Origin: a virus
DNA length: 64,000 bases
Reading direction: 5' to 3' (one strand)
IMG/VR virus record: IMGVR_UViG_3300012944_000005
This document shows positions 900 through 51,637 of the stretch, piece by piece. The first letter of the stretch is position 1. Every line of letters starts with the position of its first letter. The notes under the pieces were generated by a model, which saw only the letters and a list, made by a program, of their open reading frames with translations, searched no databases and had not been told where the DNA came from. Position numbers and translations under genes: made by a program.

Positions 900-1709
900 T
901 CAGTTCTTCTTTAAGTCCCGGTGTGGAGCCGCGAAACTACTGACCAGTTCATCAATCGCACCCTGTTTCCAGAGAGCGCTTACGAGATCCTTGCGTTGAG
1001 CGATATTCGGGTCGTTGCCGCTGACGCCTTCGAGTCGGAGGAAAAGCCTGTCGTAAAGATCGACGAAGGGTTTCACGTTCGTGAAGATCTTTGACTTAAC
1101 CTTGGCCGATCCTGACTGATATTGTGTCTCTCGCGATTTACGCACGAGCTCGCGTCGATCTTTCTCGGATGGCCTGTGAAACACATGCCATATCTCGTAT
1201 GGCCCGTAGGACTGTTTGACGCGATAGGTTTGCGCGCCCAGAACGAAGCCCTTACCCTTCGGTCTCTCGACCTCGAACTCTGACGCGAACAAGCCGACAA
1301 GTGCCTCAGATTTGTGCTCTGATGGAATCTCGGCGGCGAGTTCGGCTGTAACAGGCGTCCATTGATCCGGATCGATGCCGTTCCATTCGTAGCCCCTTAC
1401 CTGACTCGCAAACTTGTCCCAAAGCCTGGCGTTTGCGGATACGCTGTCGGCGTTCTGGTATTTACTCACTCCTACGCCGAGCACCTGCGTCTCCGCCGGC
1501 GTCTGCTGATCTCTCTCAATGAGCGCACCGAGTGTTGGCCATTTGATTCTGTGCGAAAGCGTCATTTTCGAGTCGTCGCCGTCAACGACCTCGATTTCAA
1601 TCGTGGCTTCGGGCAGATCAAGCGGATAAAGCCTGGGCAAGTCTTCTGACTGGGATTCGATGATGAGGGTGTCGAGTTTTTCGACTGCGGTTTCTGCTGC
1701 TTCGTTCAT
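900..1709 (-). CDS. tail assembly chaperone (gpG-like) candidate
   Basis: ATG 1709 preceded by AAGGAGG. Lies between the tail tube candidate and TMP. Ends ...GAC TTA AAG AAG AAC TGA. Assigned by synteny only. Confidence 0.4.
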   Translation of the reverse strand: MNEAAETAVEKLDTLIIESQSEDLPRLYPLDLPEATIEIEVVDGDDSKMTLSHRIKWPTLGALIERDQQTPAETQVLGVGVSKYQNADSVSANARLWDKFASQVRGYEWNGIDPDQWTPVTAELAAEIPSEHKSEALVGLFASEFEVERPKGKGFVLGAQTYRVKQSYGPYEIWHVFHRPSEKDRRELVRKSRETQYQSGSAKVKSKIFTNVKPFVDLYDRLFLRLEGVSGNDPNIAQRKDLVSALWKQGAIDELVSSFAAPHRDLKKN

Positions 1710-1817
1710 ATGCCTCCTTCGTGGCAATCCTTCAATTAGGTATCGGCCCGCGAGCGCGTGAAGGTGTCGCGCTTTGTCCTCGCGGCGCGCAACCGCGAGT
1801 GAGCGAGCCGATGGTTA

Positions 1818-2015
1818 TTACTGCTCGCGAGCGGGCTCCTTCGCTTCGAAGACTTCCCGCCCGTCGAATGAGTTATGAATGATCAACGCGGTCTGTCCGT
1901 GGACTTCCACGCGAGGCTTGCATGCGCAAGGACCGCCTTTCAGATTGTGCGGCGCGAGATCGTTGAGCGGGTAAACGTGCTCAATTTTGATTGAGATTGT
2001 TAAGCCTTCAGCCAT
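1818..2015 (-). CDS. hypothetical small protein (65 aa)
   Basis: ORF co-oriented with and tightly packed in the tail module. No recognisable motif. Confidence 0.35.
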   Translation of the reverse strand: MAEGLTISIKIEHVYPLNDLAPHNLKGGPCACKPRVEVHGQTALIIHNSFDGREVFEAKEPAREQ

Positions 2016-2016
2016 G

Positions 2017-2250
2017 TCACCATTTATCCTTCGGACACTTCAGATCCCGCATCCGCCATTTCGTTCTCAAATCGCTGACCGCCCAGGGCGGACATTCGCA
2101 GGCATTGCAGAACACGCCGTTCGACATCAGTCGCAGGTGCTCGCAGCCCAGACAGATCGCCTGCCGGCGGTCGTGCTCGACCAATAGCGCATCGCCGTGC
2201 CGAGCAAACGACCAGAGCGCGCGTAGAAAACTCTCTACTTTCCACAGCAT
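2017..2250 (-). CDS. Cys-rich small protein (putative zinc-binding)
   Basis: 77 aa with CLGC...CNACEC...CP cysteine pattern. 1-nt gap to the next ORF. Confidence 0.4.
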   Translation of the reverse strand: MLWKVESFLRALWSFARHGDALLVEHDRRQAICLGCEHLRLMSNGVFCNACECPPWAVSDLRTKWRMRDLKCPKDKW

Positions 2251-2483
2251 CGCCTGACTACCTCGACGCCATCGGTTGACGTGTGGTCTTCGAACTTTAG
2301 GCCGTTGCTTTCGAGAATGGCCTTGCGTTCAGCGAGCGCCTGCTCGTTGCGGCGCTGGTAATCCTCGCGCGCGAGCCTGTCGCGAGCCTGCTCGTAGGTT
2401 TCTTCGGCGACGGTCGGAGGGACCGCCAAGCTTTCTTCAACTGCGACGTCTTCGGCCATTGCTTCTTTCTCTTTTTTAGCCAT
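2235..2483 (-). CDS. hypothetical acidic protein (82 aa)
   Basis: ORF with Glu/Ala-rich helical sequence. Overlaps the downstream start by 16 nt. Confidence 0.4.
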   Translation of the reverse strand: MAKKEKEAMAEDVAVEESLAVPPTVAEETYEQARDRLAREDYQRRNEQALAERKAILESNGLKFEDHTSTDGVEVVRRCCGK

Positions 2484-2584
2484 TTTTCCTCGGTCATTTG
2501 GCGGTGAGGTGCGAGCGAATGTTGCCAGCGAGCCGAACTTAATCGGTCAACTCACCGCTGGCTCGTCTCCCTCACCATAACTCC

Positions 2585-4018
2585 TCAGTTATACAGCGGC
2601 GAGACCCCATCAAGTCCGTTGATAACCTCGATACGCGCGCCAATCGCGGTCGTGTCGAATTCAGTCTCAAAGCTCAAAGTAAACGCGGCGAAGCCGTCGC
2701 TATCAGCGCCACGGAGCACGCCGAATTTCGCTTTAGGGATGACCACTTTCAACGCCTCATAGGTCGGCCCCGCGCCATCAAGCAGAGCGCCGCGAGCGCC
2801 AAAAATGACGCCAGTAAGTTGAACGCTGTCGCAAAGCGCTTCCCATTGAGCCAAGTTTTCATCGACCAGATACGTGATCTCGGCCGTGATCGTGCGAGGA
2901 CCGCGTGAGAGCTTTTGTAAATAAGCTCCCACACCTACACCGGTCGTGACCGTGTAATCGCCGCGCTTCTGTCGCTGGTCGCCGCCGCAACGGTCGCGCT
3001 GCGGGGAATGATTGTTGTTGATCGCGACTGACCAGGCGCGCCATCGGCAAGTCGCCGTCAGGTCCTGCAAGCCGCCGGGATCGGTGTATTGAAGGAACGG
3101 CTGCGCGTTGAGACAGGCAAACGCAGGGGCCGCTGGCAGCGTGTACGAGCCGGCTGTCGTATTCGCCGACGTCAGAGCCGGCGTGATGCCTGTGCAAGTG
3201 CCATTGTCCAGGCTCAGGTTCATCGTGGTGTCGTTAGGTGCCGTTGCGCGCGCTGTTAAGATGACGGCAGTCGTCGCGCCAGAGACGACAAAGAACCCAT
3301 TCACGATTGGATCAGCCGTCAGCGCGGCGCGCACTTTTCCTGCCCAGACGGTGGCCGTGTCAGTGCTCGTCACTGCGACCGAAACAGTCCTCGGCGAGCC
3401 GGACATTCCGGCGGCCGTGACGATGACGGTTGCGTTGCCTGATGTGCCGATTGTGCCGACCGCCGTCGCCGTCTCGACCTGTTGGACGCCTATAAGATGC
3501 GGCCTGCGGTGTTTACCCGAACCGACGAGGCTGAATTGAACCTGTACATCATCATCGCCCTGCTGCGACATGGCGAAAGAGTCAACGACGACGCCCGGCC
3601 AGAGGAATGAAGCCCCGCCAACGGCTGTCACAGCGTTGAACGATGGCAACTGTAAGCCGGCCGATTTTGGCAGCATGTTAGCCGCGTGTTGGAATGCCGT
3701 GACTGCGACCAGCGTAACCGGCGCGAGGGGTGCGCCGCCGACGCAGCGCATTGCTAGTTTCCCGTAAAGGCCGAAGTTCGCTCGATCGGTAATTCCGATG
3801 GTCTCCGGAAGGAAGCGCCGCAGACACCGACCTGTCGCGAATTCTGAGGCGTTGCCAGCACGCCCGGCGTCGTTCGAGAACTCGGGTTCAGGGATATACA
3901 CGGCCGGGCTCTGCGTCGTGGCGCGATCGTAATTCGTCCCGACCGTGACTGGCGTGTTGAATGCGCCTTCCCGTGTCGAGATGAATAGCTCAATATCTTG
4001 TGTCAAAAAATCAGGCAT
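2585..4018 (-). CDS. major tail protein candidate with inserted Thr/Ala/Val-rich domain
   Basis: 477 aa. Largest ORF between the head-tail joining genes and the chaperone/TMP block. Assigned by synteny only. Confidence 0.45.
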   Translation of the reverse strand: MPDFLTQDIELFISTREGAFNTPVTVGTNYDRATTQSPAVYIPEPEFSNDAGRAGNASEFATGRCLRRFLPETIGITDRANFGLYGKLAMRCVGGAPLAPVTLVAVTAFQHAANMLPKSAGLQLPSFNAVTAVGGASFLWPGVVVDSFAMSQQGDDDVQVQFSLVGSGKHRRPHLIGVQQVETATAVGTIGTSGNATVIVTAAGMSGSPRTVSVAVTSTDTATVWAGKVRAALTADPIVNGFFVVSGATTAVILTARATAPNDTTMNLSLDNGTCTGITPALTSANTTAGSYTLPAAPAFACLNAQPFLQYTDPGGLQDLTATCRWRAWSVAINNNHSPQRDRCGGDQRQKRGDYTVTTGVGVGAYLQKLSRGPRTITAEITYLVDENLAQWEALCDSVQLTGVIFGARGALLDGAGPTYEALKVVIPKAKFGVLRGADSDGFAAFTLSFETEFDTTAIGARIEVINGLDGVSPLYN

Positions 4019-4252
4019 AGCGTTCCCTCGTCAGGTTGTCGAGGTCGCTATGCGCTGATTGGCAGCGTTGACAGGTCTAGCTTCCGCCTTCGCCCGTCGC
4101 TCTCTCGTGTATTAATTTGTCAATCAGTCCCGAGTCTGCGGCAGCTCGCTCTCTTCCCTGCTCTCTTTGAGCCAGTCTTCCCACGCCTTCAAGATACCCT
4201 TAAAGAGCGTAATCAATCGTTCATGGAGTCGGATTGTGGCTGTCCTCATTGC

Positions 4253-4720
4253 TCAACATTGCTCAATCGTTATTTCCCCAACCGATCGATGCAGCATCTG
4301 CCCTCCGAACACGTTCAAATCAATCGTAAAATCCAATTCGCTGTTCTCTGCTATCCGGTTGATTGACTTCGGCAAGGTCGTCCTATTTGCAAACCGCGCG
4401 CAGATCGCGTCGAGTTCGGCGTTGTAGGTCAGATCGGTATTCGCCGTGCGGTCGCCGGTCTCATACCAGCGCAAGCCGCGAATCTGATAAGTAAAAAAGC
4501 GCCTCACGCATGCCGGATTCTCTCGCTTACCAAAAGTCCGCCGGCGCGTGATCACGTAGCCGTGAACCCTGTTGTCGTCGGCTGCGGAAACCAGCTTGCC
4601 CGGCCATTGCCGATCGTCCCCGCCCAAAGCCCACCAACTGAAAACAACTGCGAGCGGCGCCGCCAATTGAATCTGACCTTCGAGCTCTGCGCGCATTTGG
4701 GCTTCGGTGTAGGTCGCCAT
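4253..4720 (-). CDS. tail completion / head-tail joining protein candidate
   Basis: 155 aa. Its start overlaps the stop of the gp10-like gene. Assigned by synteny. Confidence 0.4.
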   Translation of the reverse strand: MATYTEAQMRAELEGQIQLAAPLAVVFSWWALGGDDRQWPGKLVSAADDNRVHGYVITRRRTFGKRENPACVRRFFTYQIRGLRWYETGDRTANTDLTYNAELDAICARFANRTTLPKSINRIAENSELDFTIDLNVFGGQMLHRSVGEITIEQC

Positions 4721-5097
4721 TACTCGCTCGCCCCCGACAGAAATCCGCCGCCATCAAACTGCTTCAACACGCTTTCAATCGCGGGCCGCACGAAGGGCCG
4801 ATCTTTCATAAATTCCAGCGCCTCGGCATATTCAGCGCCGATTGTGATCTGGGCTTCGGTATCAGATTTCACGCTTGTCTGAATCGAATTGATCAGAAAC
4901 CCGGTATCAACAGCGGGCGCTTCGCCTGGCGCAGAGGCGATATGGATACGGCCGCGCCGGTTGTACTCGCGCCCGCCCTTCGGCCCGGTCATCAGGATCT
5001 TCATCTCCGCTTCGATCCCGAAGGCAATGGCGCGCACGAATCGACCGATCTCTTTGTTATTGTCGCCGCTGATTTGAACGTTGAAGGTCAGACTCAT
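4720..5097 (-). CDS. HK97 gp10-family tail component
   Basis: Motif GGREYNRRGRIHIASAPGEAPAVDTGFLINSI is typical of the HK97 gp10 family. Start taken at MSLTFNV (ATG 5097). Confidence 0.6.
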   Translation of the reverse strand: MSLTFNVQISGDNNKEIGRFVRAIAFGIEAEMKILMTGPKGGREYNRRGRIHIASAPGEAPAVDTGFLINSIQTSVKSDTEAQITIGAEYAEALEFMKDRPFVRPAIESVLKQFDGGGFLSGASE

Positions 5098-5098
5098 C

Positions 5099-5374
5099 TC
5101 AGCAATTCCCTCGCGCCTTCGGTAAGACGCCACAAGATAAAGTCAACGGACGAATCTGGCGTGTCGGGACTATTTTCGGCCGCTCCCGATCAATTCGTGG
5201 CAATACTCTTTTCACTGGGGGCTCCGATTCTGGCACTGGTAAGACATATCCGACATTGCTGGCGTAATTCCCGTAAATCAGCATGCTGCCTGTCCCGCAG
5301 TCATGGCCAGAATGCCAGCCCCTGCCACAGCAGTTGCAATAACCTAAGCCGAGTAACGTGTCGGAACTGATCAC
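5099..5374 (-). CDS. small Cys/Gly-rich protein
   Basis: 91 aa. The start overlaps the upstream stop (ATGA) and the stop abuts the next start. That packing suggests a real gene. Confidence 0.35.
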   Translation of the reverse strand: MISSDTLLGLGYCNCCGRGWHSGHDCGTGSMLIYGNYASNVGYVLPVPESEPPVKRVLPRIDRERPKIVPTRQIRPLTLSCGVLPKARGNC

Positions 5375-5733
5375 GTGGTCGCCCCCGTCAATGGAATCAA
5401 TCTCAGGACGTACCCCGCGCCGATCTGTTGCTGCGGCAAAAGCTCGTCAATTGAGTACCGCAGTGTCTGCCCGTTGATTGTGAGCGCAACAGCGCCGCCG
5501 ACGTGAAGCTGATCGCGGTCAATCTCGGTATCGGTAGCCAAGACCATCTTGACTCCGGTTCCATCTTGCCCTGGTCCGCGCTGCTCACGGATGACGGAGA
5601 AACCGCCCGTAATACTGCCGATCTCGACTTCCCCGTCCGACGGTGTGACCTTGTAAAACACGGCTTGAACGTTCCGCCCGTAGAGCGTGCGGTTGATCTT
5701 GTTCAGCCGGGATTTGGCAAGGAGTGTTTTCAT
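5371..5733 (-). CDS. head-tail adaptor candidate
   Basis: 120 aa, overlapping start/stop with neighbours in the head-tail joining block. Confidence 0.4.
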   Translation of the reverse strand: MKTLLAKSRLNKINRTLYGRNVQAVFYKVTPSDGEVEIGSITGGFSVIREQRGPGQDGTGVKMVLATDTEIDRDQLHVGGAVALTINGQTLRYSIDELLPQQQIGAGYVLRLIPLTGATT

Positions 5734-6179
5734 TTCGGCAACATATCTACCAACCGAAGCGCCAGATCCTGCACGAATGACTCATGCCGCTGGCGCAGCT
5801 CTTCCAAAAGCGACTCGCGAAACTTTGGCGCTTCAGATTCAGGCACAATCCGATTGATCGTGTCGCGCGCCCAATCGGCCATTACGCAGGACGAGGCGTG
5901 CAAAATCTCGTGAATCACCTGCGTTCTATGTTCATCCTCGCGCTGTGGCAGAAAGCTCGGATCGAAGGTCATCGAGAAAAAGCGATAGCTGTAATTCGCG
6001 ATGCATTCAATCGTTGCGCCCTTGCCATCACCGGCATCGCCCCAGTGCACATAAATCAACTGCGCCCAAGTCGGCAATAAAGCCGAATAGCGATCGATCA
6101 GCGGCTCAATGATGCCGCGCGCCATATCTGGCACGTCGCGGTATTCGATCTTTGCCTTATAGGTGATTTGTTCTATCAA
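5730..6179 (-). CDS. hypothetical head-tail joining block protein
   Basis: 149 aa, translationally coupled on both sides. Confidence 0.4.
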   Translation of the reverse strand: MIEQITYKAKIEYRDVPDMARGIIEPLIDRYSALLPTWAQLIYVHWGDAGDGKGATIECIANYSYRFFSMTFDPSFLPQREDEHRTQVIHEILHASSCVMADWARDTINRIVPESEAPKFRESLLEELRQRHESFVQDLALRLVDMLPK

Positions 6180-6715
6180 GCTCTTACCAGCCTATTCCCG
6201 GCAATCAACCCCGAAATCAACTGCAGTACCCTCGGCGGTAGCCCACCATTAGGCCGCGACTGCCTCAGCTTCACGCTCACCCCATCTGCCGAGAATGAAT
6301 CCATCGCGTCTTCCTGCCCATCGTCAAAGCCTTCCAGATATGCTAACGCAAGCTCGCATTGGGCGTCTTTGACGAGCTGCGGGATTTCGGTCGTAAGGTA
6401 TTGCTCGCCGTAACCCCAGCCCCAATCGTAGCCGTAACTGCCGTACCAAAGGCCGATCCCGACCGGATCAACCTTCGTGACACCGATTCGCGGCCAGGTC
6501 AGCCGCTGCGTTGTCGTGACGCGATTGCCGAGCCAGTTCTCGGCGTCCAGTCTCTTGGCCGCCATCAGGAGTGCCCGAGTCTTATCGTCTGCAACTGCAG
6601 ATGACCATGAAGCGCTATTGAGCCGCGCGTCGAGGAAGCTCTCGGCGTCTTCCATTGCGACATATGAATTCGCGGAGGCGCCGCCGATCGTGATGTCTAT
6701 GACAGGAATCGCCAT
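6176..6715 (-). CDS. gp6-like head-tail connector protein
   Basis: N-terminus SANSYVAMEDAESFLDARL...DKTRALLMAAKRLD...QRLTWPR resembles the phage gp6-like connector family. Lies just downstream of the capsid gene. Confidence 0.55.
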   Translation of the reverse strand: MAIPVIDITIGGASANSYVAMEDAESFLDARLNSASWSSAVADDKTRALLMAAKRLDAENWLGNRVTTTQRLTWPRIGVTKVDPVGIGLWYGSYGYDWGWGYGEQYLTTEIPQLVKDAQCELALAYLEGFDDGQEDAMDSFSADGVSVKLRQSRPNGGLPPRVLQLISGLIAGNRLVRA

Positions 6716-6718
6716 TGA

Positions 6719-6913
6719 TTACTTCTCGACTTTGGTCTTCGGCTTGGCTTCAGGCTTTGGCGCTCCCTCGCCTTCAGGTTTTGAATCGCCATCGGGTTGC
6801 GGTGGCTCATACGCTTTATGAATCGCCGGATCAAAGTCTGATTTGTTAATTAAGTAGCAGCCTCCAGGCGCTCTTTCGTCTGCGACTTTCACGGTTTCAA
6901 TTGTTTCCGACAT
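6719..6913 (-). CDS. small Pro/Lys/Glu-rich protein
   Basis: 64-aa ORF between the capsid and connector genes. Confidence 0.35.
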   Translation of the reverse strand: MSETIETVKVADERAPGGCYLINKSDFDPAIHKAYEPPQPDGDSKPEGEGAPKPEAKPKTKVEK

Positions 6914-8172: not shown

Positions 8173-8958
8173 CTAATCGGTAAGCTGCCCGCCGTCTTTC
8201 ATGAACTTCGCCCGTGCGTCGTGACCAAGTTGGTCGAAAGCCCCGCGCGTCATGACTTTTCCTCCGGCCGGGCCGGTTCTGTTATTATTGTTGTGCGCCC
8301 CAGAGCCTCCCGCGCCGGTCGCCTCGAAAGCTCGGCCAAACACTTCGTTGGCCTTCATCTCTTCAACAAGGTTGCTGATCGTGAACGGATCGCCTTTCAC
8401 GTTGGCAATCCTCGGCTGCCCTTGCGCGTCCAGCACGCGGGCGACGAATTCGCCGTTTTCCTCTACGACTTTGACCGCGCGCATCACATGCGGCAGGAGC
8501 AATTCCGGCGCACCCTTCGCGGCGGCGATTGCGGATGTCGCCTGGGCCTCGATCAAGCTCTTTTCGAGCGACGACTGCAGTTTGACGATTCGGTCATCGC
8601 GGGATTTGAGTTCCGTCTGAAAGTGCGTCTCGCGCTTGGTTAAATCAGTCGCGAGTTGCTCTTTCAACTGTTTTTCCCGCGCGTCCCAATCGCCTTTGTT
8701 CTTCAACTTGTCAGCAGCGGCTTGCTCAGCCTCCGTTTTGAGCTTTCTCGCCTCTTCTGGATCAATTCCCTCGAATCCTTTAAGCGACCTCTCGAAAGCG
8801 GCCTTCGCTTCACGCTCTTTCTGCAGCGCGCTCTTGAGACCAGCGGTCTCGGTTGGCAATTCAGCCTCGAACACGAACTTCCCGTCTTGTTCGAGTAGTG
8901 AACTGCGCAGCCATTCAGGCGCGTCCTCTTTCTTGTCAAAAACCTGCTTAACTGGCAT
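8173..8958 (-). CDS. scaffolding protein
   Basis: 261 aa, Lys/Glu/Ala-rich predicted coiled coil between portal and capsid. Confidence 0.6.
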   Translation of the reverse strand: MPVKQVFDKKEDAPEWLRSSLLEQDGKFVFEAELPTETAGLKSALQKEREAKAAFERSLKGFEGIDPEEARKLKTEAEQAAADKLKNKGDWDAREKQLKEQLATDLTKRETHFQTELKSRDDRIVKLQSSLEKSLIEAQATSAIAAAKGAPELLLPHVMRAVKVVEENGEFVARVLDAQGQPRIANVKGDPFTISNLVEEMKANEVFGRAFEATGAGGSGAHNNNNRTGPAGGKVMTRGAFDQLGHDARAKFMKDGGQLTD

Positions 8959-10559: not shown

Positions 10560-10588
10560 TTGACTAAAACCCGCCAGGGGGTTATCGT
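10560..10588 (+). promoter_or_regulatory. sigma70-like promoter candidate for the plus-strand accessory operon
   Basis: TTGACT (10560-10565), a 17-nt spacer, then TATCGT (10583-10588). Located in the portal-divergent intergenic region, 50 nt upstream of the first plus-strand ORF. Confidence 0.3.
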
Positions 10589-10980: not shown

Positions 10981-11175
10981 ATGGCTATTTGGATGAGAGA
11001 CGAGAAAGGGGAATTCTGTACAGCCTACACGGTTGAATACCGGGGGGAGGTTTTTATCGTAACCGAGCGGGAATACGACGCTCTGGCCGAGTCGGGACCG
11101 AACGTTGCGGACGGCTCTATCGGCGGCGATGACGCTATAGGTGATTTTTTGCGAGGCTTGGGCGCTCTCGATTGA
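10981..11175 (+). CDS. hypothetical protein (64 aa)
   Basis: ORF with AAGGAGG upstream. Its stop overlaps the next start. Confidence 0.45.
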   Translation: MAIWMRDEKGEFCTAYTVEYRGEVFIVTEREYDALAESGPNVADGSIGGDDAIGDFLRGLGALD

Positions 11176-11438
11176 GCGCGATCCACGAGACATTCACTCG
11201 ATGGAAGCAAAAACAACTACAACAATCAATGGAGGAGAACAGGATGCCAGGACAATTGTGGCAAGAATGCCACTGCGGAACTGAGCCTGTGTGCTCAGAC
11301 TGCGAACACTGCAAAAAACATTGCTCGTGCGAGCAAGACAAATCGGACGCGAAACAGATTCAAGAGTTTGAGCGGGCATATCCTGGATTCTTGGAGCGCG
11401 TGCGAAAACACCACGAAGATGGCAGTAATGAACATTGA
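11172..11438 (+). CDS. Cys-rich small protein (88 aa)
   Basis: CHCG...CSDCEHCKKHCSC cysteine cluster. Coupled to its neighbours. Confidence 0.45.
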   Translation: MSAIHETFTRWKQKQLQQSMEENRMPGQLWQECHCGTEPVCSDCEHCKKHCSCEQDKSDAKQIQEFERAYPGFLERVRKHHEDGSNEH

Positions 11439-11646: not shown

Positions 11647-12321
11647 ATGCCCCCTATCAGCCATTTTATTTATCCAGCCGCTCCGCGCGGCGCTGAATCC
11701 GGTATCTGCGCCGTCTGCGGCTTCGAGGGCGATGGCCAGTACGGCCGCGACATTCTGGACATCACGACCAGCAATGTTACGGCGCTGTTTGAATTGGCTT
11801 ACGGCCATATATGCGCGCCCTGCTATGGATTGTGGTCGAAGCCGAAATACTGGCATCGCGGGATCTTCGCCACTCGCGGCGGGGTGCGATTCCCAGTGAT
11901 CTCGCGCGAGAGCGTCACGCCTGAGCGTCCGACATGGTCGCAGGCGCTGCGCGCGCTCTCGCCCGATGAACCGCGCGCCATCGTCCTGACCACCGATCCA
12001 AAGAAACGCGTCTGGCCGTTTGCTCGTGTGTCATCCGGCGATACGGCGTGGATTTATATCCACGATCCATCGCGGGGCGTAAGCAGCAACCGCCCGGTCT
12101 CAATCAAGAAGTTGCTCGCCGCGCTCGACTTGGTTGAGCAGGTTTACGCGCTCGGCTGGTCCAAGCCCTGGATCGCCAGGAGCCTTATGGGCTCTCAAAA
12201 CGCCATCGTATCCACCGGCCTCGACGTCGCGCTCAATCTCGATCGGCGTCTAGCCCAAATCCGCAATGAGCCCGAGTTTCTGCCCGCGCTCATCGTTGCC
12301 CAAAAGGAGATTCCCGAATGA
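11647..12321 (+). CDS. csf1: Csf1-like (type IV Cas8-like) zinc-finger protein
   Basis: 224 aa with two CxxC pairs (ICAVCG and ICAPCYG) near the N-terminus, as in the Csf1 family. ATGA overlap with the next gene. Confidence 0.55.
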   Translation: MPPISHFIYPAAPRGAESGICAVCGFEGDGQYGRDILDITTSNVTALFELAYGHICAPCYGLWSKPKYWHRGIFATRGGVRFPVISRESVTPERPTWSQALRALSPDEPRAIVLTTDPKKRVWPFARVSSGDTAWIYIHDPSRGVSSNRPVSIKKLLAALDLVEQVYALGWSKPWIARSLMGSQNAIVSTGLDVALNLDRRLAQIRNEPEFLPALIVAQKEIPE

Positions 12322-13751
12322 TATTGAATTCGCACGTCCCCGCCCCATTCCGTTTCCTGATGACCGCCGCTAACTCCGTCGCGCACGGTGAGGCCGGCGC
12401 GAACTCGACCGGGCCAAACAACACAACTCTTTTCGCTCGCGAGCTGGCGCTCCTGAAGCGCGAGCAACTCGGATATGCGCCGGCGGAAGCGAAGGAGGCA
12501 TTCAAGTCCCTCTTCGAGTCTTTCCCAGTTGCAACCACGAATATTCCCTATCTCCATACCCGCTCCGGCGCTGAACTAATCGCCATTATCTTCACAGCTC
12601 AATATCCGCTGATCTACGGCGGCACGGGCGATGGACTATTTTCCGGCCTGGAGCGCTACCAATACCTGGTCACCCGGCTGACCGACGCGGCGGCGAGTTT
12701 CTCGACCCTGCCGTCTGTCTGGGGTTATGTGGCGCGCAAGCTGGCGCTGCCGATGTACCCGGAGAGCGCCTACAGCGTCATGGCCGCGCTCTACACGCTG
12801 CCGACTGCGCTTCAAGCTGCCGCGCTCTCGGCTGTGCTGAAATCCTCCGAGCTGATCGTTATGTCTGCGCGAATGATCGCCGATGGCGTCAAGGCGTCGA
12901 GCGAGGACTACGCCCGAAAGGCCAAAGTTTCGCCGACAACGCTCGAAGTTTACAGTCCGACCGACTCCCAGATAGCCGAGATTGTGGGCGATGGCGATAA
13001 GACAATAGCCATCCGCTTGCCTGCTATCTCCGGTAATTCCCTGCGCCACAACTTGCTGCGCGCGCCGGCGGCAACTCGATTGCTCTCCGAGCTTGGACTG
13101 CAACCGGATCGCGAGATCGTCCCGGTCGGCGTCGAGCGCTTTCTGTACAGCGGCGGCAATACCCAGAAGGGCGCCAAGTCTCCCGCCGCCGCCGATCTCT
13201 ATGAGGCCAGGGCGCGCGAACGGTATCCGACAATTGATGCGCTCGGCGGTTCGACCGATCAGTTTGTCATGACCCGCTCGGCTGTGAGTATCGCGGGCTG
13301 GATCGTTTGCCGCGAGAACAATTGGATTACAGAGCGACGGACGGACGGTAATATCCGCTCCGATGCGTCGATCTTCGATCTGGTGACGGAGACGACCAGA
13401 ACGCGCGCCGGCATTGGCGGCAAGGACGCTGAGAGCGGCCAGATGATTTTCTCCTATGAGACTCTCGCGGCGGGCACTCCTGTGCTCGTGGAAGTCAATT
13501 TCCAGCCCTTTACGCGCGACCTGACCGTCGGCTCGATGCTCCAATCCCTGCGCGACTGGCAGGCTGAGGGCGGCTTCATCGGCGCTCGGAGCGCGCAGGG
13601 GCATAGCCGATTCCTGGCTGAATTCCCGGACGATGATCGCTTTGCTTGGGCGGACGCCTATTTGCAATATTTGCAGGAGAACAAAATCGAGTTGGCCGAA
13701 GGGCTGCGAGCGGCGACGTTCGGAGCGGAGGTAAAACTATGCGCGGCGTAG
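12318..13751 (+). CDS. csf2: Csf2/Cas7-like RAMP protein with large helical insertion
   Basis: 477 aa. Has N-terminal FRFLMTAANSVAHGEAG, then LPAISGNSLRHNLLR (Cas7-type G/S-x-S-L-R motif), then glycine-rich GGFIGARSAQGHSRF near the C-terminus. AAAGGAG RBS. Confidence 0.55.
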   Translation: MILNSHVPAPFRFLMTAANSVAHGEAGANSTGPNNTTLFARELALLKREQLGYAPAEAKEAFKSLFESFPVATTNIPYLHTRSGAELIAIIFTAQYPLIYGGTGDGLFSGLERYQYLVTRLTDAAASFSTLPSVWGYVARKLALPMYPESAYSVMAALYTLPTALQAAALSAVLKSSELIVMSARMIADGVKASSEDYARKAKVSPTTLEVYSPTDSQIAEIVGDGDKTIAIRLPAISGNSLRHNLLRAPAATRLLSELGLQPDREIVPVGVERFLYSGGNTQKGAKSPAAADLYEARARERYPTIDALGGSTDQFVMTRSAVSIAGWIVCRENNWITERRTDGNIRSDASIFDLVTETTRTRAGIGGKDAESGQMIFSYETLAAGTPVLVEVNFQPFTRDLTVGSMLQSLRDWQAEGGFIGARSAQGHSRFLAEFPDDDRFAWADAYLQYLQENKIELAEGLRAATFGAEVKLCAA

Positions 13752-14476
13752 TTCACCTGTCCGACCTCGACCGCTACGGCGAGCGGCTCGCCGGATTGCA
13801 GATGCGCCCGCTGCGCGTCACGGCGCGCACGGTGACGCCCGTTGCCAGCAATGATCCGGTAGCGCTCGACGCCGTACTGGCGTGGACGATGGTTGTTGAG
13901 CAATTGGAAGGTCGGCCCTTTCCTCGCGTGGAAGGGCCGGTCTGGCAACCATTGCCGCTTGCGCTTGACCGCCTGATTGACGGCTTACCGCTCTGGCAGT
14001 CAACGGACTTTATGCCGGTCGGGCTGGCGAGGGGGATGAGCCATATCCACCGCCGCACGGGCGATAACCCCTACGCGATGCGCGGATTGCAAGAGACGCT
14101 CTCCCAGAAGCGCCCGCGCCGATACCCGAGTGAACTGGCCGGGCCATATATGAATTTCAGGGTTCCGGAGCGGCGGAACGTGGCGGAGAGTTGGTCGGCG
14201 ACCTGTGTCGGCAATAAGGCGGAGATCGAGCGGCTATTGAGCTACGTCCAGTTCTTCGGCAAAGCGCCGAAGCGTGGCTGCGGGTTCATATTCGATTGGG
14301 AAGTGGAATTGCTCGATGAGCTATTTTCGCTCTATAACGAATCCGGCGAGCCGCTGCGCCCGATCCCGGTCGAGTGGGACACGGGCGTCTGTGTCCAACA
14401 GGGATGGACGCCCCCGTACTGGCTGAAAGAGACATGGCGTCCCTGTCTCAGTTCAGCAGCGGCGAGGTTTGTATGA
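13739..14476 (+). CDS. csf3: Csf3/Cas5-like RAMP protein
   Basis: 245 aa from ATG 13739 (GGAGCGGAGG upstream). Has PVALDAVLAW and the C-terminal glycine-rich loop FFGKAPKRGCGFIFDWEV typical of RAMPs. Confidence 0.5.
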   Translation: MRGVVHLSDLDRYGERLAGLQMRPLRVTARTVTPVASNDPVALDAVLAWTMVVEQLEGRPFPRVEGPVWQPLPLALDRLIDGLPLWQSTDFMPVGLARGMSHIHRRTGDNPYAMRGLQETLSQKRPRRYPSELAGPYMNFRVPERRNVAESWSATCVGNKAEIERLLSYVQFFGKAPKRGCGFIFDWEVELLDELFSLYNESGEPLRPIPVEWDTGVCVQQGWTPPYWLKETWRPCLSSAAARFV

Positions 14477-14736
14477 TCGTAGGAGATTTATTCATCACGC
14501 CGCACGCCGTGCGGCAGTTTCGCGAGCGCATACCGGGAATGTGGCGGCTCAAATACGAGCAGGCGCTAGGGCTCATCCTTCGCGCGCTGCGAGAAAACAC
14601 GGCCAGCGTCAAGCCGACGCCAAACGGCTGTGGCGTCTCTATTCGCGTGCGGGGGGAGTTGAACTTTCGCGCGATTGCAGCGCGGGGCGAGGGCGTCAAG
14701 CCAGCGGTCGTAACGATTCTGCGGAGCGGAAAATGA
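14473..14736 (+). CDS. small operon protein (87 aa), unknown fold
   Basis: ATGA overlaps at both ends. Contains the motif ITPHAVRQFRER. No confident family. Confidence 0.45.
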   Translation: MIVGDLFITPHAVRQFRERIPGMWRLKYEQALGLILRALRENTASVKPTPNGCGVSIRVRGELNFRAIAARGEGVKPAVVTILRSGK

Positions 14737-15530
14737 AGGATTGGGCAGATTACGGCATCACCGGGAAAGTTCATTATGGCCAGCCGGTCAACGCCGAGCC
14801 GTACCGCCGCGTGATTCAGCGCCGAATGGCAAAGTCTCACGTTGCAATCGAGGAATTCCTTCACCTGGTCGGCAAGTCGGGCTACGTGGCCGTGAGTTTT
14901 GGCGTTGATTCCCTTGTGGCCTACGACCTGGCGCGGCGGATCTATCCGGAGATCTGTGCCGCGTGGGTCAACCAGGGGCCGCTCGCCGAGTGGCCTGACT
15001 GTCTCGCGCTGAAGAATCTGATGGTTGCCGGCGGAATACCTCTCACAGAGATCGCGCCCGACGTGACGCTCTACGACTGGTACAAGCAAAACGGGATCGA
15101 TTTCGGCGCTAACATGAACAACGCTGAGGATGAGCGACTAAATAAGGCGCTGATCTACGACCCTATCGAGCGATTCCACCAGGAAGAGAATCGCAAAGGC
15201 GTTATTTGGGGACTGCGCTGGCGAGGCGAGGGCGGGCATCGGGCTTTTGTGATCAAGGGCAATGGTGAGCTTTATCAGCGCAAGGCTGATGGTATCTGGG
15301 TCTGCTCGCCGGTCGGCAACTGGTCGAAGAGCGAGATATGGGCCTACCTGGATTTGCACGGTCTGCCCTACCCGGCTTTCTACGATCTAGACCGCGAGAA
15401 GATCCGCAACGGCCCACCTATTGGGGTCACGGGGCTGCATATGGGGCGTCTGGTGCGGTTTCGGATGCTGTTCCCGGAGATGTGGCGGGTGTTCTGTATG
15501 GAATTTGAGGAGATTCAACGATATGGCTGA
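14733..15530 (+). CDS. CysH-like PAPS reductase / PP-loop superfamily protein
   Basis: 265 aa from ATG 14733. PP-loop-like VAVSFGVDSLVAYDL, resembling the SFG-x-D/E-S motif of the PAPS reductase family. Confidence 0.6.
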   Translation: MKDWADYGITGKVHYGQPVNAEPYRRVIQRRMAKSHVAIEEFLHLVGKSGYVAVSFGVDSLVAYDLARRIYPEICAAWVNQGPLAEWPDCLALKNLMVAGGIPLTEIAPDVTLYDWYKQNGIDFGANMNNAEDERLNKALIYDPIERFHQEENRKGVIWGLRWRGEGGHRAFVIKGNGELYQRKADGIWVCSPVGNWSKSEIWAYLDLHGLPYPAFYDLDREKIRNGPPIGVTGLHMGRLVRFRMLFPEMWRVFCMEFEEIQRYG

Positions 15531-15768
15531 ACCTGTAAAACTGGACGATATCCTCATCTCCCTGGAGATATATGAGACATGGAACAAGCTGGCCTCGCAG
15601 GTCTCCACCTGTTTACCTGCCGGCGTCTCGCCGCAGGATATTGGCGACGAGGAAGCGGAAAAGAACGCTGATGGAAGTCTGACGATATTCTGTCGCGCGA
15701 AGGGCAAGCGGATCGCCCAATTGCGCATACCAGCCACTCACTGGCAATGGAGGTTTCCGGCAAATTGA
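15523..15768 (+). CDS. hypothetical operon protein (81 aa)
   Basis: MAEPVKLDDILISLEIYETW... Overlaps the upstream stop by 8 nt and the next start by 1 nt. Confidence 0.4.
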   Translation: MAEPVKLDDILISLEIYETWNKLASQVSTCLPAGVSPQDIGDEEAEKNADGSLTIFCRAKGKRIAQLRIPATHWQWRFPAN

Positions 15769-16664
15769 TGATGATCTATCTCGGACTCGATAATCAGGAG
15801 AAAGACAGGCGGATCGCTGATTACTGCGCGGCGCACGGTGTTGAGAAAGTCGTCATCCTATCGCCGGCGAAGTTTACGCTCTCCTGCTCGTTTGCCAACT
15901 CGGAAGTAGTCGAATGGGCTGAGATCATTGAATACAAATTCTTTTATAGGCTGATTCAGGAGATCAACAGCAAGACGCTGGTCGTAGTTAATGAATGCCT
16001 GCGGACGCAAAACCGCTACGATCTGACTTATAACTGCATTCGCCACTTCCTGAATCAGACCAGCCACCAGTTAATCTTCCAGCACTTGCCGATAATCGAT
16101 TCGATCGAGGACTTCATGATTCTCTTCGACTTTGACACGCGCAGCCGTTGGAAGCGCGAGAAGTTTAACGCAAAACCGCTGGGCGAGAGCCGGATCGAGG
16201 TCGCGCCCGTCGCGGTCGTCTTCAATACGATTCCGGTCGAGATCGACGCCAAACTGAAGGACGCCTATCGGAAGGAGAAAGAGCGACTACTCGCCCACAT
16301 CGGTCTGAAAGATCCGCACACGATCCCGCGTAATCTCTATCTGATGAGTGGCAAAGCAAAGCTGAAACACGTCGAGTCCGGAGGCGCCGGACTCTTCGCC
16401 GAGCGCCGTCATTATGTCGGCCGCAACAATCGCTTCAAGATCGAAACTCTTCAGACCTACAAGGAGCCGAGCTATCCAGATGCGCCTTATATGGTCTTCG
16501 AGTTTTGTCACAACTTCATCGACTTCGTGGACTTCATGGCGCTGTCGCGCCAGTCGTCCTTCGACGTCATGGTCGCCGACCTGAAGGTCGATCAATGGTA
16601 TCTGGCCCGATACCGCGAATGGGCTGAGAGGCTAAGGAATGCCACGGCAAGTTTACAGCGATAA
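15768..16664 (+). CDS. hypothetical operon protein (298 aa)
   Basis: Long ORF with ordinary globular composition. TGATG junction upstream (alternative ATG at 15747) and a 26-nt overlap downstream. No motif recognised. Confidence 0.5.
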   Translation: MMIYLGLDNQEKDRRIADYCAAHGVEKVVILSPAKFTLSCSFANSEVVEWAEIIEYKFFYRLIQEINSKTLVVVNECLRTQNRYDLTYNCIRHFLNQTSHQLIFQHLPIIDSIEDFMILFDFDTRSRWKREKFNAKPLGESRIEVAPVAVVFNTIPVEIDAKLKDAYRKEKERLLAHIGLKDPHTIPRNLYLMSGKAKLKHVESGGAGLFAERRHYVGRNNRFKIETLQTYKEPSYPDAPYMVFEFCHNFIDFVDFMALSRQSSFDVMVADLKVDQWYLARYREWAERLRNATASLQR

Positions 16665-17766
16665 AAAGAACGTCCTCGACGCTGCGCGCGGGCGCATGGT
16701 GTTTGTCTTTGATCATTTTGAGCAGATTATCGTTTCGGTGAGCGGCGGCAAGGATTCGACCGTCCTGGCGCACCTAGCGCTTGCCGAGGCGCGCCGGCGC
16801 CAGCGCAAGATCGGGCTGTTTTTTCTGGATGAGGAGGCGATGTATCAGAGTAGCGTGGATATGGTGGAATACCTGATGGGGATTTTCCCGGAAAACGTGA
16901 ATCGCCTCTGGCTACAAATTCCTTTCAACCTGACCAGCGCGACATCATTTCAGGAAAGTCAGATGCGATGCTGGGAACCGGGCAAGCATAAAGACTGGAT
17001 GCGCCAGAAGGGGCGCAACAATATCTGCGCGAAGCCTTGGCAGGAAAAGGAGGAGTCGTTCAGGAGCGGCTATAAATGGCTGGATTTCTACGGCGTGATT
17101 GAGAATTTCGAGCGATGTTATAAGGGCGCCGCTTTTCTGGTCGGCGAGCGCGCCACGGAAAGCCCGAACCGATGGCGCAGCGTGGCAAAGAATCCGGTAA
17201 TCATCGGGGGGACGAAGGTTTTCTGGGGGACACCTCGCGGCGACAATTTTATCTTTAAGCCGATCTACGACTGGAACTTCCATGATGTATGGCACTACAT
17301 TCATGACGAGAAACTGAGGTACTCGAAGATTTACGATTTTCAGTTAAAAAAAGGCTATCCGATCAATGAGATGCGGATAAGCTCCCTTATCCACGAACGA
17401 TCATTCAAAAGTTTGTGCGACCTACCTGAGTTCGAGCCGAAGACTTTTGAAAAACTCTGTCGGCGCATCAAGGGAATCGCATTTGTTCAGGAGACGGGAA
17501 AAAACGCGAAAGTCTTCAAGGCGCGGAAGCTGCCGAAGAACTTCAAATCGTGGATCACCTACCGCGATTTTTTGCTCGAAACATATCCCGACCCGGCGAA
17601 CAAGCCCATCTTCAAGAAGAGATTCGGCAAGCATCTGATCAATGAATACGTGGCGCGCCAGCATTGTCGTCAGCTTGTTTGCAATGATTACGAAAACAAC
17701 CTGCCGGTCGATAACCGCCCTGATCCGCGCGAGGAATTGATTCGCTATTATCAGGAGGTTTTATGA
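16639..17766 (+). CDS. IbrA/DndC-like PAPS-reductase-domain protein with C-terminal extension
   Basis: 375 aa. Canonical PP-loop SVSGGKDSTVLAHL plus a C-terminal extension of roughly 170 aa, as in IbrA-type (PAPS_reduct plus DUF3440) proteins. Confidence 0.6.
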   Translation: MPRQVYSDKKNVLDAARGRMVFVFDHFEQIIVSVSGGKDSTVLAHLALAEARRRQRKIGLFFLDEEAMYQSSVDMVEYLMGIFPENVNRLWLQIPFNLTSATSFQESQMRCWEPGKHKDWMRQKGRNNICAKPWQEKEESFRSGYKWLDFYGVIENFERCYKGAAFLVGERATESPNRWRSVAKNPVIIGGTKVFWGTPRGDNFIFKPIYDWNFHDVWHYIHDEKLRYSKIYDFQLKKGYPINEMRISSLIHERSFKSLCDLPEFEPKTFEKLCRRIKGIAFVQETGKNAKVFKARKLPKNFKSWITYRDFLLETYPDPANKPIFKKRFGKHLINEYVARQHCRQLVCNDYENNLPVDNRPDPREELIRYYQEVL

Positions 17767-18365
17767 CCTACTACGTTGATACGATTGAGCAATTCTACGC
17801 CATCCGAGAGAACCTGCAGCCGGCCTATATCACCTCGAAAAAGCACGGGCGTATTGAGGTTCCTTGCGCAAATACGCTCCTGGTCAACACGGAGTTAATC
17901 AAAGCGAATAATTACAATCCGAATTACGTGCCGAGGGAAAAGATGGCACTGCTACGGCAGTCCATTCTGGATAACGGCTTTTGTTCTCCTATTGTGACAA
18001 TATGGGACGACGAGCAGGAGCGATTCATCATAGTGGACGGCTTCCACCGTGACACAATGGGCGATAAGGAGTGGCTCGATCTGGATTATATTCCGCTGGT
18101 TGTCTTGAAGCACGGCATAGTGCAGCGAATGACCGCGACTGTGCAGTTTAACAAAGCGCGCGGCGTCCACCAAGTCGACCTCGACGCCGAAGTCATACGG
18201 GCGCTGATCGAGCAAAGTTTGAGCGAGGAAGAGATTGCGATCCATCTCGGCCTTGACCTGGAAACCATTCATCGCTACAAGCAATTGACCGGCGTCGCTG
18301 AGCTGTTCAAGAACTCAGCGTATTCGATGAGCTGGGAAATGGTCGAAGAAGAGGAGACGGCGTGA
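17763..18365 (+). CDS. ParB/Srx-domain protein (IbrB/DndB-like)
   Basis: 200 aa with ParB N-terminal-domain motif IIVDGFHRD. AGGAGG RBS. ATGA overlap upstream. Confidence 0.6.
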   Translation: MTYYVDTIEQFYAIRENLQPAYITSKKHGRIEVPCANTLLVNTELIKANNYNPNYVPREKMALLRQSILDNGFCSPIVTIWDDEQERFIIVDGFHRDTMGDKEWLDLDYIPLVVLKHGIVQRMTATVQFNKARGVHQVDLDAEVIRALIEQSLSEEEIAIHLGLDLETIHRYKQLTGVAELFKNSAYSMSWEMVEEEETA

Positions 18366-19000
18366 GCGACTGGGATTATGGCGGTATCCACCGCGCTTAT
18401 GATATGTCGGGCGTGATCGAGTTGCCCAACAACTCGCGCGTCGAGGTCTGCGATTGGACGGATCGGTTGCCAAGTTTCATGCTTGGCGCCGACACGATCT
18501 TTGTCGATCCGCCGTGGAATGCTGGAAATGCTAGGACATTTTATACAAAAGCTGACAAGACGGTTGCCGCTTTCAGCTTCGAATGGTTTTCCGACCGCCT
18601 ATTTTGCAGACTGGACCAGATCGCGCCGAATTATCTATTCATCGAGATGGGCAAGGAGTGGCTCGGCTGGTATCTTGAACGCTGCCGCGAGCGCTATAAA
18701 TATGTCACTTTCTATAACTCGACCTATTATAAGAAGCGCGAGAACAAGTGTTACGTGATCCACGCCACGGATAACCATTCGCGCCGGCGCTACAAAGAGC
18801 TTGAAGATCTGGACGAGGCAGCGATCATCGAATGGCTGTGCGCCAACCACGATTATCAATGCATCGGCGATCTATGCATGGGCTGCGGGTTAGTCGGTAG
18901 ACACGCTTTTCTAAACGGCAAACGGTTCGTCGGCACGGAACTGAACCCGAAGAGATTGGCTATTCTGGTCGATTTTATTCGGAAAACAAAAGGAGATTGA
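18362..19000 (+). CDS. DNA amino-methyltransferase (N6-adenine or N4-cytosine, beta-class motif order)
   Basis: 212 aa, GTG start overlapping the upstream stop. Motif IV IFVDPPWN comes before the AdoMet motif I-like IGDLCMGCGLVG. Confidence 0.65.
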   Translation: MSDWDYGGIHRAYDMSGVIELPNNSRVEVCDWTDRLPSFMLGADTIFVDPPWNAGNARTFYTKADKTVAAFSFEWFSDRLFCRLDQIAPNYLFIEMGKEWLGWYLERCRERYKYVTFYNSTYYKKRENKCYVIHATDNHSRRRYKELEDLDEAAIIEWLCANHDYQCIGDLCMGCGLVGRHAFLNGKRFVGTELNPKRLAILVDFIRKTKGD

Positions 19001-22829: not shown

Positions 22830-23543
22830 TTAGTTCTCTTCGGGAAACAAGTCACCGTAATCTCGAAGAATCTTGCGCGCCCATTTTACGAGGTCCCCGG
22901 CCCGCTGGCCCGGCGTCTGGCGTATTATCCATAGCTCTAAATTCTCTTCTCTATTATCGTCTCGCTTGCCATTCTTATGGTGAACGTTTTCGCCGGGCTT
23001 TAATGGGCGCCCTAAAATATGCTCCATTATAAGCCGATGCTCTGATACATATCCGCCATGACCAAATGCGGCAGGATGTTCAGGGTTATAAACACAAACA
23101 TAGCCATCCTTCTTCACGTATCTACCGCCACGCCAATTGTCGGACAAGTCGCCCCGGTTCCCTTGATACGTACATGGCCTAGAACAAAATCTACCGGCGT
23201 TGTTTGGTCGAGGACGAAATATCTTCCCGCATGTCTCGCAAGGCCGATCAGTTATTGCCTGATCTATTCTTCGGGCATGAATTCCATCGAGCGCGCATTT
23301 CTGACTGCAATATTTCTGATGCATTGAGCGGGCCATGAAGCCACTCCGACATGATTCGCATTCTCGTTCGCCATACGTTGTTTTATGGCGCTGCCCCAGT
23401 CTAACTGGATTCTCTACTCGCATTGATCGATGTAGGCAGGCTCGCGAGCAATACTTTTTATTTCTCGTCTTATTCGGCTTCAGCCAAAAAGACTTTTTAC
23501 ATTCTTGGCATTTCCATCGAATCTTCGCAACAGGCATCGGCAT
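22830..23543 (-). CDS. HNH endonuclease with three tandem zinc-ribbon modules
   Basis: Three copies of the pattern CxxC-x13/14-YCSxxC, followed by HHKNGKRDDNREENLELW (HNH motif). Confidence 0.7.
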   Translation of the reverse strand: MPMPVAKIRWKCQECKKSFWLKPNKTRNKKYCSRACLHRSMRVENPVRLGQRHKTTYGERECESCRSGFMARSMHQKYCSQKCALDGIHARRIDQAITDRPCETCGKIFRPRPNNAGRFCSRPCTYQGNRGDLSDNWRGGRYVKKDGYVCVYNPEHPAAFGHGGYVSEHRLIMEHILGRPLKPGENVHHKNGKRDDNREENLELWIIRQTPGQRAGDLVKWARKILRDYGDLFPEEN

Positions 23544-31817: not shown

Positions 31818-31870
31818 ATGCCCTCCATCTCCCCAACCTTCTCCAGCGAGCGCCCGAAGACGCCGCCATC

Positions 31871-51632: not shown

Positions 51633-51637
51633 ACGCC

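Follow-up and report, generated by a model that had tools for sequence, protein, structure and literature searches.

The stretch of viral DNA analysed here, the 64,000-nucleotide IMG/VR virus record IMGVR_UViG_3300012944_000005 (in the following, the window), contains three plus-strand genes at positions 11647-12321, 12318-13751 and 13739-14476 that are read in the same direction with overlapping start and stop codons, and that we assign to the csf1, csf2 and csf3 genes of a type IV CRISPR-Cas (short palindromic repeats that are clustered and regularly interspaced, with their associated proteins) effector. The first gene encodes the type IV large subunit Csf1 (224 amino acids, aa) with a four-cysteine zinc-finger-like motif, the second the Cas7 backbone protein Csf2 (477 aa), which carries a Cas11-like insert, and the third the Cas5 homologue Csf3 (245 aa). 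Two further plus-strand genes follow, an 87-aa gene (14473-14736) that overlaps the ends of csf3 and of the gene behind it, and a cysH-like gene (14733-15530) for a 265-aa protein of the PP-loop ATP pyrophosphatase family. Judged from gene content and sequence comparison, we are highly confident that 11647-15530 constitutes an intact subtype IV-B effector operon, composed of csf1, csf2 with an inserted cas11, csf3, a putative 87-aa adaptor, and the cysH-like gene.

The identity of the three Csf proteins is indicated by profiles and by predicted folds, at a level that chance does not account for. PADLOC type IV profiles match Csf1 over its full length (Csf1_0_IV, E=9.1e-7, residues 12-215), Csf2 over residues 231-463 (typeIV_Cas7, E=2.2e-30), and Csf3 again over the full length (Csf3_0_IV, E=2.3e-27). 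Csf3 is furthermore matched by the whole NCBIfam model TIGR03116 (E=1.1e-11, 44.8 bits against a curated cut-off of 140), has a precomputed match to Pfam PF27782 (Csf3) on record, and can be aligned with the Csf3 chain 8rc3_F of the PDB (E=0.026), including its GCG loop. For Csf2, the NCBIfam match is restricted to the C-terminus (E=1e-4, 21.6 bits against a cut-off of 130), NCBIfam gave nothing relevant for Csf1, and our own Pfam scan gave no match for any of the three. PDB sequence searches with a single Csf1 or Csf2 sequence retrieved nothing, but searches with family profiles and with predicted structures were successful. The Csf2 family profile matches the IV-B Csf2 chain 7jhy_e (E=5.6e-8) in three stretches, which cover residues 5-38, 225-314 and 371-434, IV-B chains are the only type IV chains that this PDB search retrieved, and Csf2 of PDB 7JHY can be aligned with both the motif PAISGNSLRH and the glycine-rich loop at the C-terminus. 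AlphaFold2 models, built from alignments of 58 Csf2 and 34 Csf1 homologues, all of them metagenomic, reached predicted local distance difference test (pLDDT) values of 84 for Csf2 and 90 for Csf1. With the Csf1 model, Foldseek found two significant matches in the PDB, both of which are type IV-A Csf1 chains (7xg1_A and 8rc3_G, E~1e-5, template modelling score ~0.5 across the full length); with the Csf2 model, type IV Csf2 chains came out on top (8rc3_D, E=1.4e-8), the IV-B chain 7jhy_a was also retrieved, and the BFVD viral structure library contained no significant match. In the alignment of 34 Csf1 sequences, C56 and C59 are invariant and C21 and C24 nearly so, and many further columns are invariant in the Csf1 and Csf2 alignments.

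An earlier reading of the DNA, which had only the letters and the translated open reading frames at hand (the sequence-only reading), had already recognized Csf1, Csf2/Cas7 and Csf3/Cas5 in these three proteins, and our analysis agrees: the motifs that it quoted are present and conserved in the homologues, and two of the checks that it proposed—profile searches with the Csf families and comparison of AlphaFold models with type IV-B structures—gave type IV matches for all three proteins by PADLOC profile and for Csf1 and Csf2, the two that were modelled, by structure. It had started the third gene at the first in-frame TTG (13646), but the start in the public gene call is the ATG at 13739, which is also preferred by the profile matches.

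It is very improbable that the genes represent a non-functional remnant or misidentified repeat-associated mysterious proteins (RAMPs), that is, decaying cargo or unrelated RAMP folds that form no CRISPR-type complex. Such a view could point to the silence of Pfam on all three proteins, to NCBIfam scores below the cut-offs for Csf2 and Csf3 and none for Csf1, and to the fact that the homologues are labelled as hypothetical proteins in public sources. However, the reading frames are intact and translationally coupled, full-length homologues with identities of 28-88% keep the motif residues invariant, the order of the csf genes is conserved across differing phage and integrative-element backbones, and the type IV profile and fold matches are specific. 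This conservation argues that the module is functional and not decaying.

The sequence-only reading had described the gene set as the configuration of subtype IV-B, and while this set of components holds, it had left Cas11, one of the components that define IV-B, unaccounted for. We find the corresponding domain inside Csf2. Residues ~47-226 (~180 residues, encoded at 12456-12995 on the plus strand) are predicted to form an all-helical domain similar to Cas11 (Csf4), as indicated by the structure model, by profile searches and by hhalign. In the Csf2 model, about nine helices lie between the strands formed by residues 39-46 and 230-237, the profile matches to 7jhy_e skip residues 39-224, and the intervening stretch matches the Cas11 of 7JHY. 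A profile made of the insert only (residues 47-226, 24 sequences) had a single match among 177,635 PDB sequences, and this was the IV-B Cas11 chain 7jhy_h (E=3.5e-4). A search with the full Csf2 profile, which covered 1.84 billion representatives clustered at 50% identity, yielded 894 relatives, of which 141 had E<=1e-30. Among the best 150, about 100 have a length of 430-540 aa and cover the whole profile including the insert, and about 15, with 270-340 aa, match in two stretches and lack the insert. An insert-less csf2 (P0219, 281 aa) is found on a 96-kb contig (L023; related contigs and loci carry such L numbers here), where it is preceded by a csf1 (235 aa, hhalign probability of 98% against the Csf1 profile) and a 130-aa gene, and followed by a PAPS (phosphoadenosine phosphosulfate)-reductase gene and a 272-aa gene, which is the canonical gene order. 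The 130-aa protein aligns with the insert profile over 114 columns (hhalign probability 83%, E=8.8e-6), and because its gene lies upstream of an insert-less csf2, we regard the stand-alone cas11 as a homologue of the inserted Csf2 domain. The searchable literature contained no description of a Csf2-Cas11 fusion, and the architecture appears to be new.

The 87-aa protein has no known fold and no family match, the PADLOC and phrog libraries included. In L014 (11356-12429) and L015 (3379-4452), which belong to the most distant relative examined (28% Csf2 identity), Csf3 has a length of 357 aa, as a homologue of the 87-aa protein is fused to its C-terminal end, and the 87-aa gene is missing in some relatives, such as L017. 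From the fusion and the gene overlaps, the 87-aa protein is probably a Csf3-associated subunit. We also considered the 87-aa gene as a candidate for the missing Cas11, and rejected it: the gene is absent from close relatives, and the Cas11 signal sits in the Csf2 insert.

That a cysH-like gene follows the module, as stated in the sequence-only reading, is borne out, with the 87-aa gene in between. The encoded protein matches Pfam PAPS_reduct (E=3e-8) and TIGR00434 (E=7.5e-9), and has the PP-loop SFGVDS but GVTGLH in place of ECGLH, so that the catalytic cysteine is missing. In 13 homologues from related loci, the PP-loop is conserved as S[FGW]G[VAK]DS, and the ECGLH position lacks a conserved cysteine. 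Exactly these two features, the PP-loop and the missing catalytic cysteine, have been reported for IV-B CysH (PMC8175902). All related loci that are long enough to show it have a cysH-like gene next to the csf operon or inside it; in a sub-clade (L001, L002 and L009, together with L008), a 233-aa PAPS-reductase gene is found between csf2 and csf3. In L001 and L002, a 121-aa Cupin_2 gene was called beside this gene, and the contigs of L001, L002, L009 and L008 also encode a serine recombinase and an HNH gene.

Among the open reading frames examined, namely the island at 10.6-19.0 kb and the other large ones in the window, we found no gene for a DinG/RecD helicase, for Cas6, or for adaptation proteins, as the sequence-only reading had noted for cas6, dinG and adaptation genes. 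The closest described system is the IV-B locus on a megaplasmid of Mycobacterium sp. JS623 (PDB 7JHY; PMC7937560), which likewise has the set of Csf1, Cas11, Csf2 and Csf3 next to a cysH-like gene, likewise comes without array, Cas6, helicase and nuclease, and whose Csf2 and Cas11 are the best solved sequence relatives of the phage family profiles. There are, however, clear differences. In JS623, Cas11 is encoded by a separate gene, whereas in the phage it forms a domain that interrupts Csf2 behind its first strand and loop; the phage has the additional 87-aa gene after csf3; the carrier is a phage and not a plasmid; the sequence identity is very low; and the putative catalytic Asp42 of JS623 Csf2 is an asparagine in the phage protein, beside an invariant asparagine. 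Type IV-A systems (PDB 8RC3 and 7XG1) provide the best structural matches for the Csf2 model and the only significant ones for the Csf1 model, but they possess DinG, Cas6/Csf5 and an array and have neither Cas11 nor CysH, and the IV-A-specific parts were not found in the phage.

Three points weigh against the assignment as a IV-B operon with an inserted Cas11. The best Foldseek matches and the best PADLOC Cas7 matches carry the label IV-A and not IV-B, and the subtype placement therefore rests on gene content and on the sequence matches to 7JHY rather than on a phylogeny. The statistics of the Cas11 assignment are moderate (E=3.5e-4, hhalign 83%). Furthermore, the Csf family is very divergent, since the NCBIfam scores of Csf2 and Csf3 are far below the curated cut-offs.

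As the sequence-only reading had it, the carrier is a phage with the module in its structural region. The window encodes a portal protein, a scaffold protein, a major capsid protein, a large terminase, a Mu-F-like head protein, DnaB, a replication initiator, and an endolysin, as well as two tyrosine integrase-family proteins (48406-49563 and 54784-55680, both plus strand; phrog_1, E=7e-37 and 2e-43), and the csf module is part of an accessory island on the plus strand, with the portal gene on one side and the terminase gene on the other. The phage genome has a size of ~66 kb (66,183 bp in an ENA metagenome assembly), and the capsid protein shares ~50% identity with its counterparts in siphoviruses of Caulobacter, Acinetobacter, Rhizobium and enterobacteria. 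The carrier is a temperate siphovirus-like phage, and its host is probably a proteobacterium. In related phages whose portal and capsid proteins are 52-63% identical, the csf module is still found beside the portal gene, and that this position is kept at such distances argues for a long-term retention of the module. The Csf2 family was found in metagenomes only, where it comprises more than 100 clusters at 50% identity. Among 185,579 species-representative genomes, Csf2 occurred in just two metagenome-assembled genomes (MAGs), one labelled Proteobacteria (58%) and one labelled Microbacterium (33%). A tblastn search with Csf2 had no match in 50,697 GenBank phage records, with only three weak matches to haloarchaeal plasmids elsewhere, and a megablast search with the 8-kb island had no match among GenBank phages. 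The large size of this metagenome-only, phage-borne clade appears to be new. That IV-B modules reside on plasmids and sometimes in prophages (PMC7038947), and in one archaeal virus (PMC10848311), has already been published, and the location in a phage is therefore less surprising than the sequence-only reading held. The archaeal case is Fuxivirus, a Bathyarchaeia virus, which shares with the phage a virus-encoded IV-B effector, an adjacent CysH-like gene, and a mini-array in the genome; it differs in that it is an archaeal virus with a separate cas11 and with the mini-array inside the IV-B locus, whereas the phage has its array at a distance of 15.5 kb, as part of a Cas12m-like system (PMC10848311).

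The sequence-only reading had called the module array-less. This applies to its surroundings, as no CRISPR array is present within ~15 kb of the module in the phage or within 10 kb of it in 11 related loci, but it does not apply to the phage as a whole. A repeat search detected a mini-CRISPR array on the minus strand at 29980-30162, in which two 36-nt spacers separate three 37-nt repeats. The repeat, CGTAGCAATTGATGTTCAATGGATGAGCCATTGAAAG, has an 8-bp hairpin at its 3' end, its sequence ends with ATTGAAAG, and the distal repeat is degenerate. The array begins 9 nt downstream of a minus-strand gene outside the csf operon (30171-31880) whose product, of 548-569 aa, is a Cas12m-like type V effector. 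It matches Cas12m (PDB 23vw_A) with E=6.2e-6 over residues 193-531, as well as Pfam Cas12f1-like_TNB and NCBIfam TnpB, and all of 21 homologues keep the RuvC residues D230, E398 and D503/D505 as well as a CCCH zinc site. The phage gene resembles the DNA-binding Cas12m effectors of type V-M in its size, in the RuvC and zinc-ribbon regions, in the array directly downstream, and in the hairpin at the 3' end of the repeat; it differs in that the relation is distant, the gene is phage-borne, and the array has two spacers only. Homologues with 29-35% identity are immediately followed by arrays, which have 14 and 8 repeats. Since the mini-array follows the Cas12m-like gene by 9 nt and homologues have arrays of their own, we assign it to the type V system. 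The Cas12m-like gene and its array are a separate type V system that is not conserved with the csf module, as judged from the Csf-bearing IMG/VR contigs, on which the gene was not found, and from the 11 related loci without an array.

As to the targets of the two spacers, blastn against phages gave matches at chance level only (E=0.4), and exact 24-25-mers of the spacers had no match in IMG/VR, so that no protospacer was found; the repeat core also had no exact match in IMG/VR. A metagenome match (L027, JGI Ga0137411_1377721, 4636 bp) was considered as a protospacer and rejected, as it is a second copy of the same array. It contains a near-identical end of the Cas12m-like gene and the first repeat and spacer, with single-base deletions in both, and since the spacer is present at both ends in opposite orientation, the contig looks like a palindromic assembly artefact.

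The presence of an array in the same genome raises the idea of interference guided in trans by CRISPR RNAs (crRNAs): the Csf complex would load crRNAs from the phage mini-array or from host arrays and would silence complementary host or competitor DNA or RNA without cleavage, similar to type IV-A. The mini-array could be transcribed, and the repeat end ATTGAAAG matches the 8-nt 5' handle that is common among class 1 crRNAs, which we count in favour of this idea. Furthermore, the archaeal virus with IV-B and a mini-array has been interpreted in this way (PMC10848311), and a plasmid with IV-B, an inactivated Cas12b3 and mini-arrays has been described (PMC12669027, Extended Data Fig. 7). Nevertheless, we consider guided interference in trans unlikely. 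The array belongs to the type V system, none of the 11 related loci has one near csf, no cas6 was found, there is no solitary array repeat near the csf operon, no Cas12m-like gene was found on the Csf-bearing IMG/VR contigs, and the solved IV-B complex ignored co-expressed crRNAs (PMC7937560). A supply of the Csf complex by the mini-array was thus rejected, and we treat the two systems as separate.

Downstream of the cysH-like gene, the plus-strand island continues with two genes without known function (15523-16664; 81 aa and 298 aa), whose products had no family matches. The 298-aa protein has a homologue with 54% identity that adjoins an IbrA-like gene in L012 and L017, and the gene thus travels with the IbrA-like gene. 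In the phage, this gene lies at 16639-17766 (plus strand) and encodes an IbrA-like PP-loop enzyme of 375 aa with PAPS_reduct (Pfam, E=1.3e-12) and DUF3440 (E=1.2e-7) domains, the PP-loop SGGKDS, a strong match to phrog_2302 (E=1.2e-79), and weak PADLOC matches to DndC, SspD and BrxP. It is followed at 17763-18365 (plus strand) by an IbrB-like gene for a 200-aa protein with a ParB N-terminal domain (phrog_2159, E=2.1e-41; TIGR00180, E=4.9e-5; Pfam ParB_N, E=0.003), and a ParB-like gene accompanies the IbrA-like gene in all cases. The last gene of the island (18362-19000, plus strand) encodes a 212-aa protein without known function, the C-terminal 40 residues of which match PADLOC mad2 (E=1.7e-6), and it neighbours the IbrB-like gene also in L012, L017 and L018 with 64-69% identity.

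The IbrA-like/ParB-like pair is found beside the csf module in about 5 of 11 independent lineages. It is adjacent to csf in the phage studied, in L004, in L012 and L017 with inverted orientation, and in L014 and L015, an element that has ParA, FtsK/SpoIIIE and an integrase instead of phage structural genes. In a contig of the Microbacterium MAG (L019, CAZBZR010000065.1, positions 1000-6900), the order is csf1, csf2, ibrA-like, ParB-like, cysH-like, csf3, and the pair is thus located inside the operon. IbrA-like genes occur in only 149 of the 50,697 GenBank phage records, and the association with the csf module is therefore strongly enriched. Pairs of IbrA and IbrB are known from phages and prophages (phrog_2302 and phrog_2159; an annotated example is Flavobacterium phage FCV-1) and match 16639-18365 strongly, but elsewhere they have no link to CRISPR in the searchable literature, whereas here they recur beside IV-B modules. 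The recurrent association with the IbrA-like/ParB-like pair and with the 87-aa partner appears to be new. Against a functional partnership speaks that the pair is missing from the surrounding 10 kb in roughly half of the lineages (L007, L013, L010 and L001 among them), so that it cannot be obligatory, and a shared hotspot for accessory genes could account for part of its adjacency.

Taken together, the explanation that accounts best for the data is a IV-B operon that would act as an RNA-bound module for recruiting enzymes and modifying a target. As a whole, we consider this explanation rather likely; the identity and composition of the operon are very probable, and the recruitment and modification, although the likeliest mechanism, have a less than even probability. 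The mechanism is put forward by analogy with the solved IV-B complex, in which Csf2 and Cas11 form a filament on heterogeneous RNA with a uniform length (PMC7937560). Csf2 would polymerize on RNA to a Cas7 filament as in that complex, and the inserted Cas11 domain would supply the minor filament, which would be built in at a ratio of 1:1, as each copy of Csf2 carries its own Cas11 domain. The filament would be capped by Csf1 and by Csf3 with the 87-aa protein, and it would serve as an RNA-based binding or scaffold module that itself lacks a nuclease, a helicase, Cas6, and an array. It could bring PP-loop ATP pyrophosphatases to the bound nucleic acid, namely the cysteine-less CysH-like protein and, in many relatives, the IbrA-like enzyme with its ParB-like partner, and the recruited enzymes may adenylate the nucleic acid and thereby modify or block it. 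The phage could benefit from this by counter-defence or in the competition with other mobile elements. We favour this recruitment model because a cysteine-less PP-loop enzyme, frequently joined by another PP-loop enzyme and its ParB-like partner, is tightly coupled to the module. A modification of the AMPylation type by IV-B CysH has been proposed before (PMC8175902).

The same binding of heterogeneous RNA of uniform length (PMC7937560) could also be understood as that of an RNA sponge or anti-CRISPR, in which the filament would non-specifically sequester host crRNAs or small RNAs and thus blunt RNA-guided defence during infection or lysogeny. The idea has been raised in view of the negative correlation of IV-B with other CRISPR systems (PMC7038947), and a phage-borne module in an accessory island would suit it. 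We nevertheless regard it as improbable, as it leaves unexplained why the module is near-universally coupled to a PP-loop enzyme and why the Csf1 and Csf3 caps, which imply defined ends, are conserved; moreover, the authors who discussed the idea themselves judged so complex an anti-CRISPR unlikely (PMC7038947). Silencing by crRNAs in trans and sequestration of RNA are both possible accounts, which fit the comparative data less well than the recruitment of modifying enzymes.

The recruitment model can be taken one step further, to a version that we regard as rather doubtful: the IV-B filament may be the nucleic-acid-recognition scaffold of a composite modification machine, in which the CysH-like protein, the IbrA-like protein, and the ParB-like nucleoside triphosphate-binding partner would chemically mark or block specific DNA or RNA, and in which the Cas11-Cas7 fusion would fix the stoichiometry in a streamlined viral version.

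Some further features of the window and of a related phage were noted. Upstream of csf1, a small cysteine-rich open reading frame (11172-11438, plus strand; CHCG...CSDCEHCKKHCSC) is one of four short genes between a promoter-like site at 10560-10588 and csf1, and in the related phage L013, tandem 21-nt units similar to GTTCACGTGGTGCACTACGTA at 8280-8360, ~900 nt upstream of csf1, may be regulator-binding sites. On the minus strand, the gene at 22830-23543 encodes a 237-aa protein with an HNH_3 endonuclease domain and a weak match to the Cas12f1-like TNB zinc ribbon (E=0.0075), beside head-morphogenesis genes, and a C-5 cytosine DNA methyltransferase gene at 32280-33485 (minus strand) contains, within its coding region, three imperfect 30-nt direct repeats (32672-32878) at a spacing of 87-90 nt. 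A cluster of short repeats at 51573-51905, around the gene at 51638-52342, comprises CGGGATGAA as a perfect 9-nt triplet, AAATGCCCC in about five copies, and a direct repeat of 27 nt at a spacing of 57 nt; the cluster may represent operators or iterons. The entire window had no match in a scan with Rfam, and no tRNA was found.

Subtype IV-B is among the few CRISPR-Cas subtypes without a known biological function, and for the time after 2021, we found only reviews in the literature on its function. The only solved IV-B complex had random RNA bound, and Csf1 and Csf3 were not resolved in it. The phage family described here offers a large and coherent comparison set, with more than 100 clusters at 50% identity and with four subunits encoded in three or four genes. 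Such loci go unannotated because none of the three Csf proteins passes the curated thresholds of Pfam and NCBIfam. The Rosetta-stone fusion of Csf3 with the 87-aa protein points to an additional subunit, the recurrent IbrA-like/ParB-like pair strengthens the idea that IV-B acts by ATP-dependent chemistry on nucleic acids, and the temperate phage of ~66 kb is a tractable carrier for knock-outs and for the analysis of infection phenotypes. If the version with a composite modification machine is true, IV-B would serve for modification on an RNA scaffold and not for interference, and the phage family would be a minimal model with which this could be proven.

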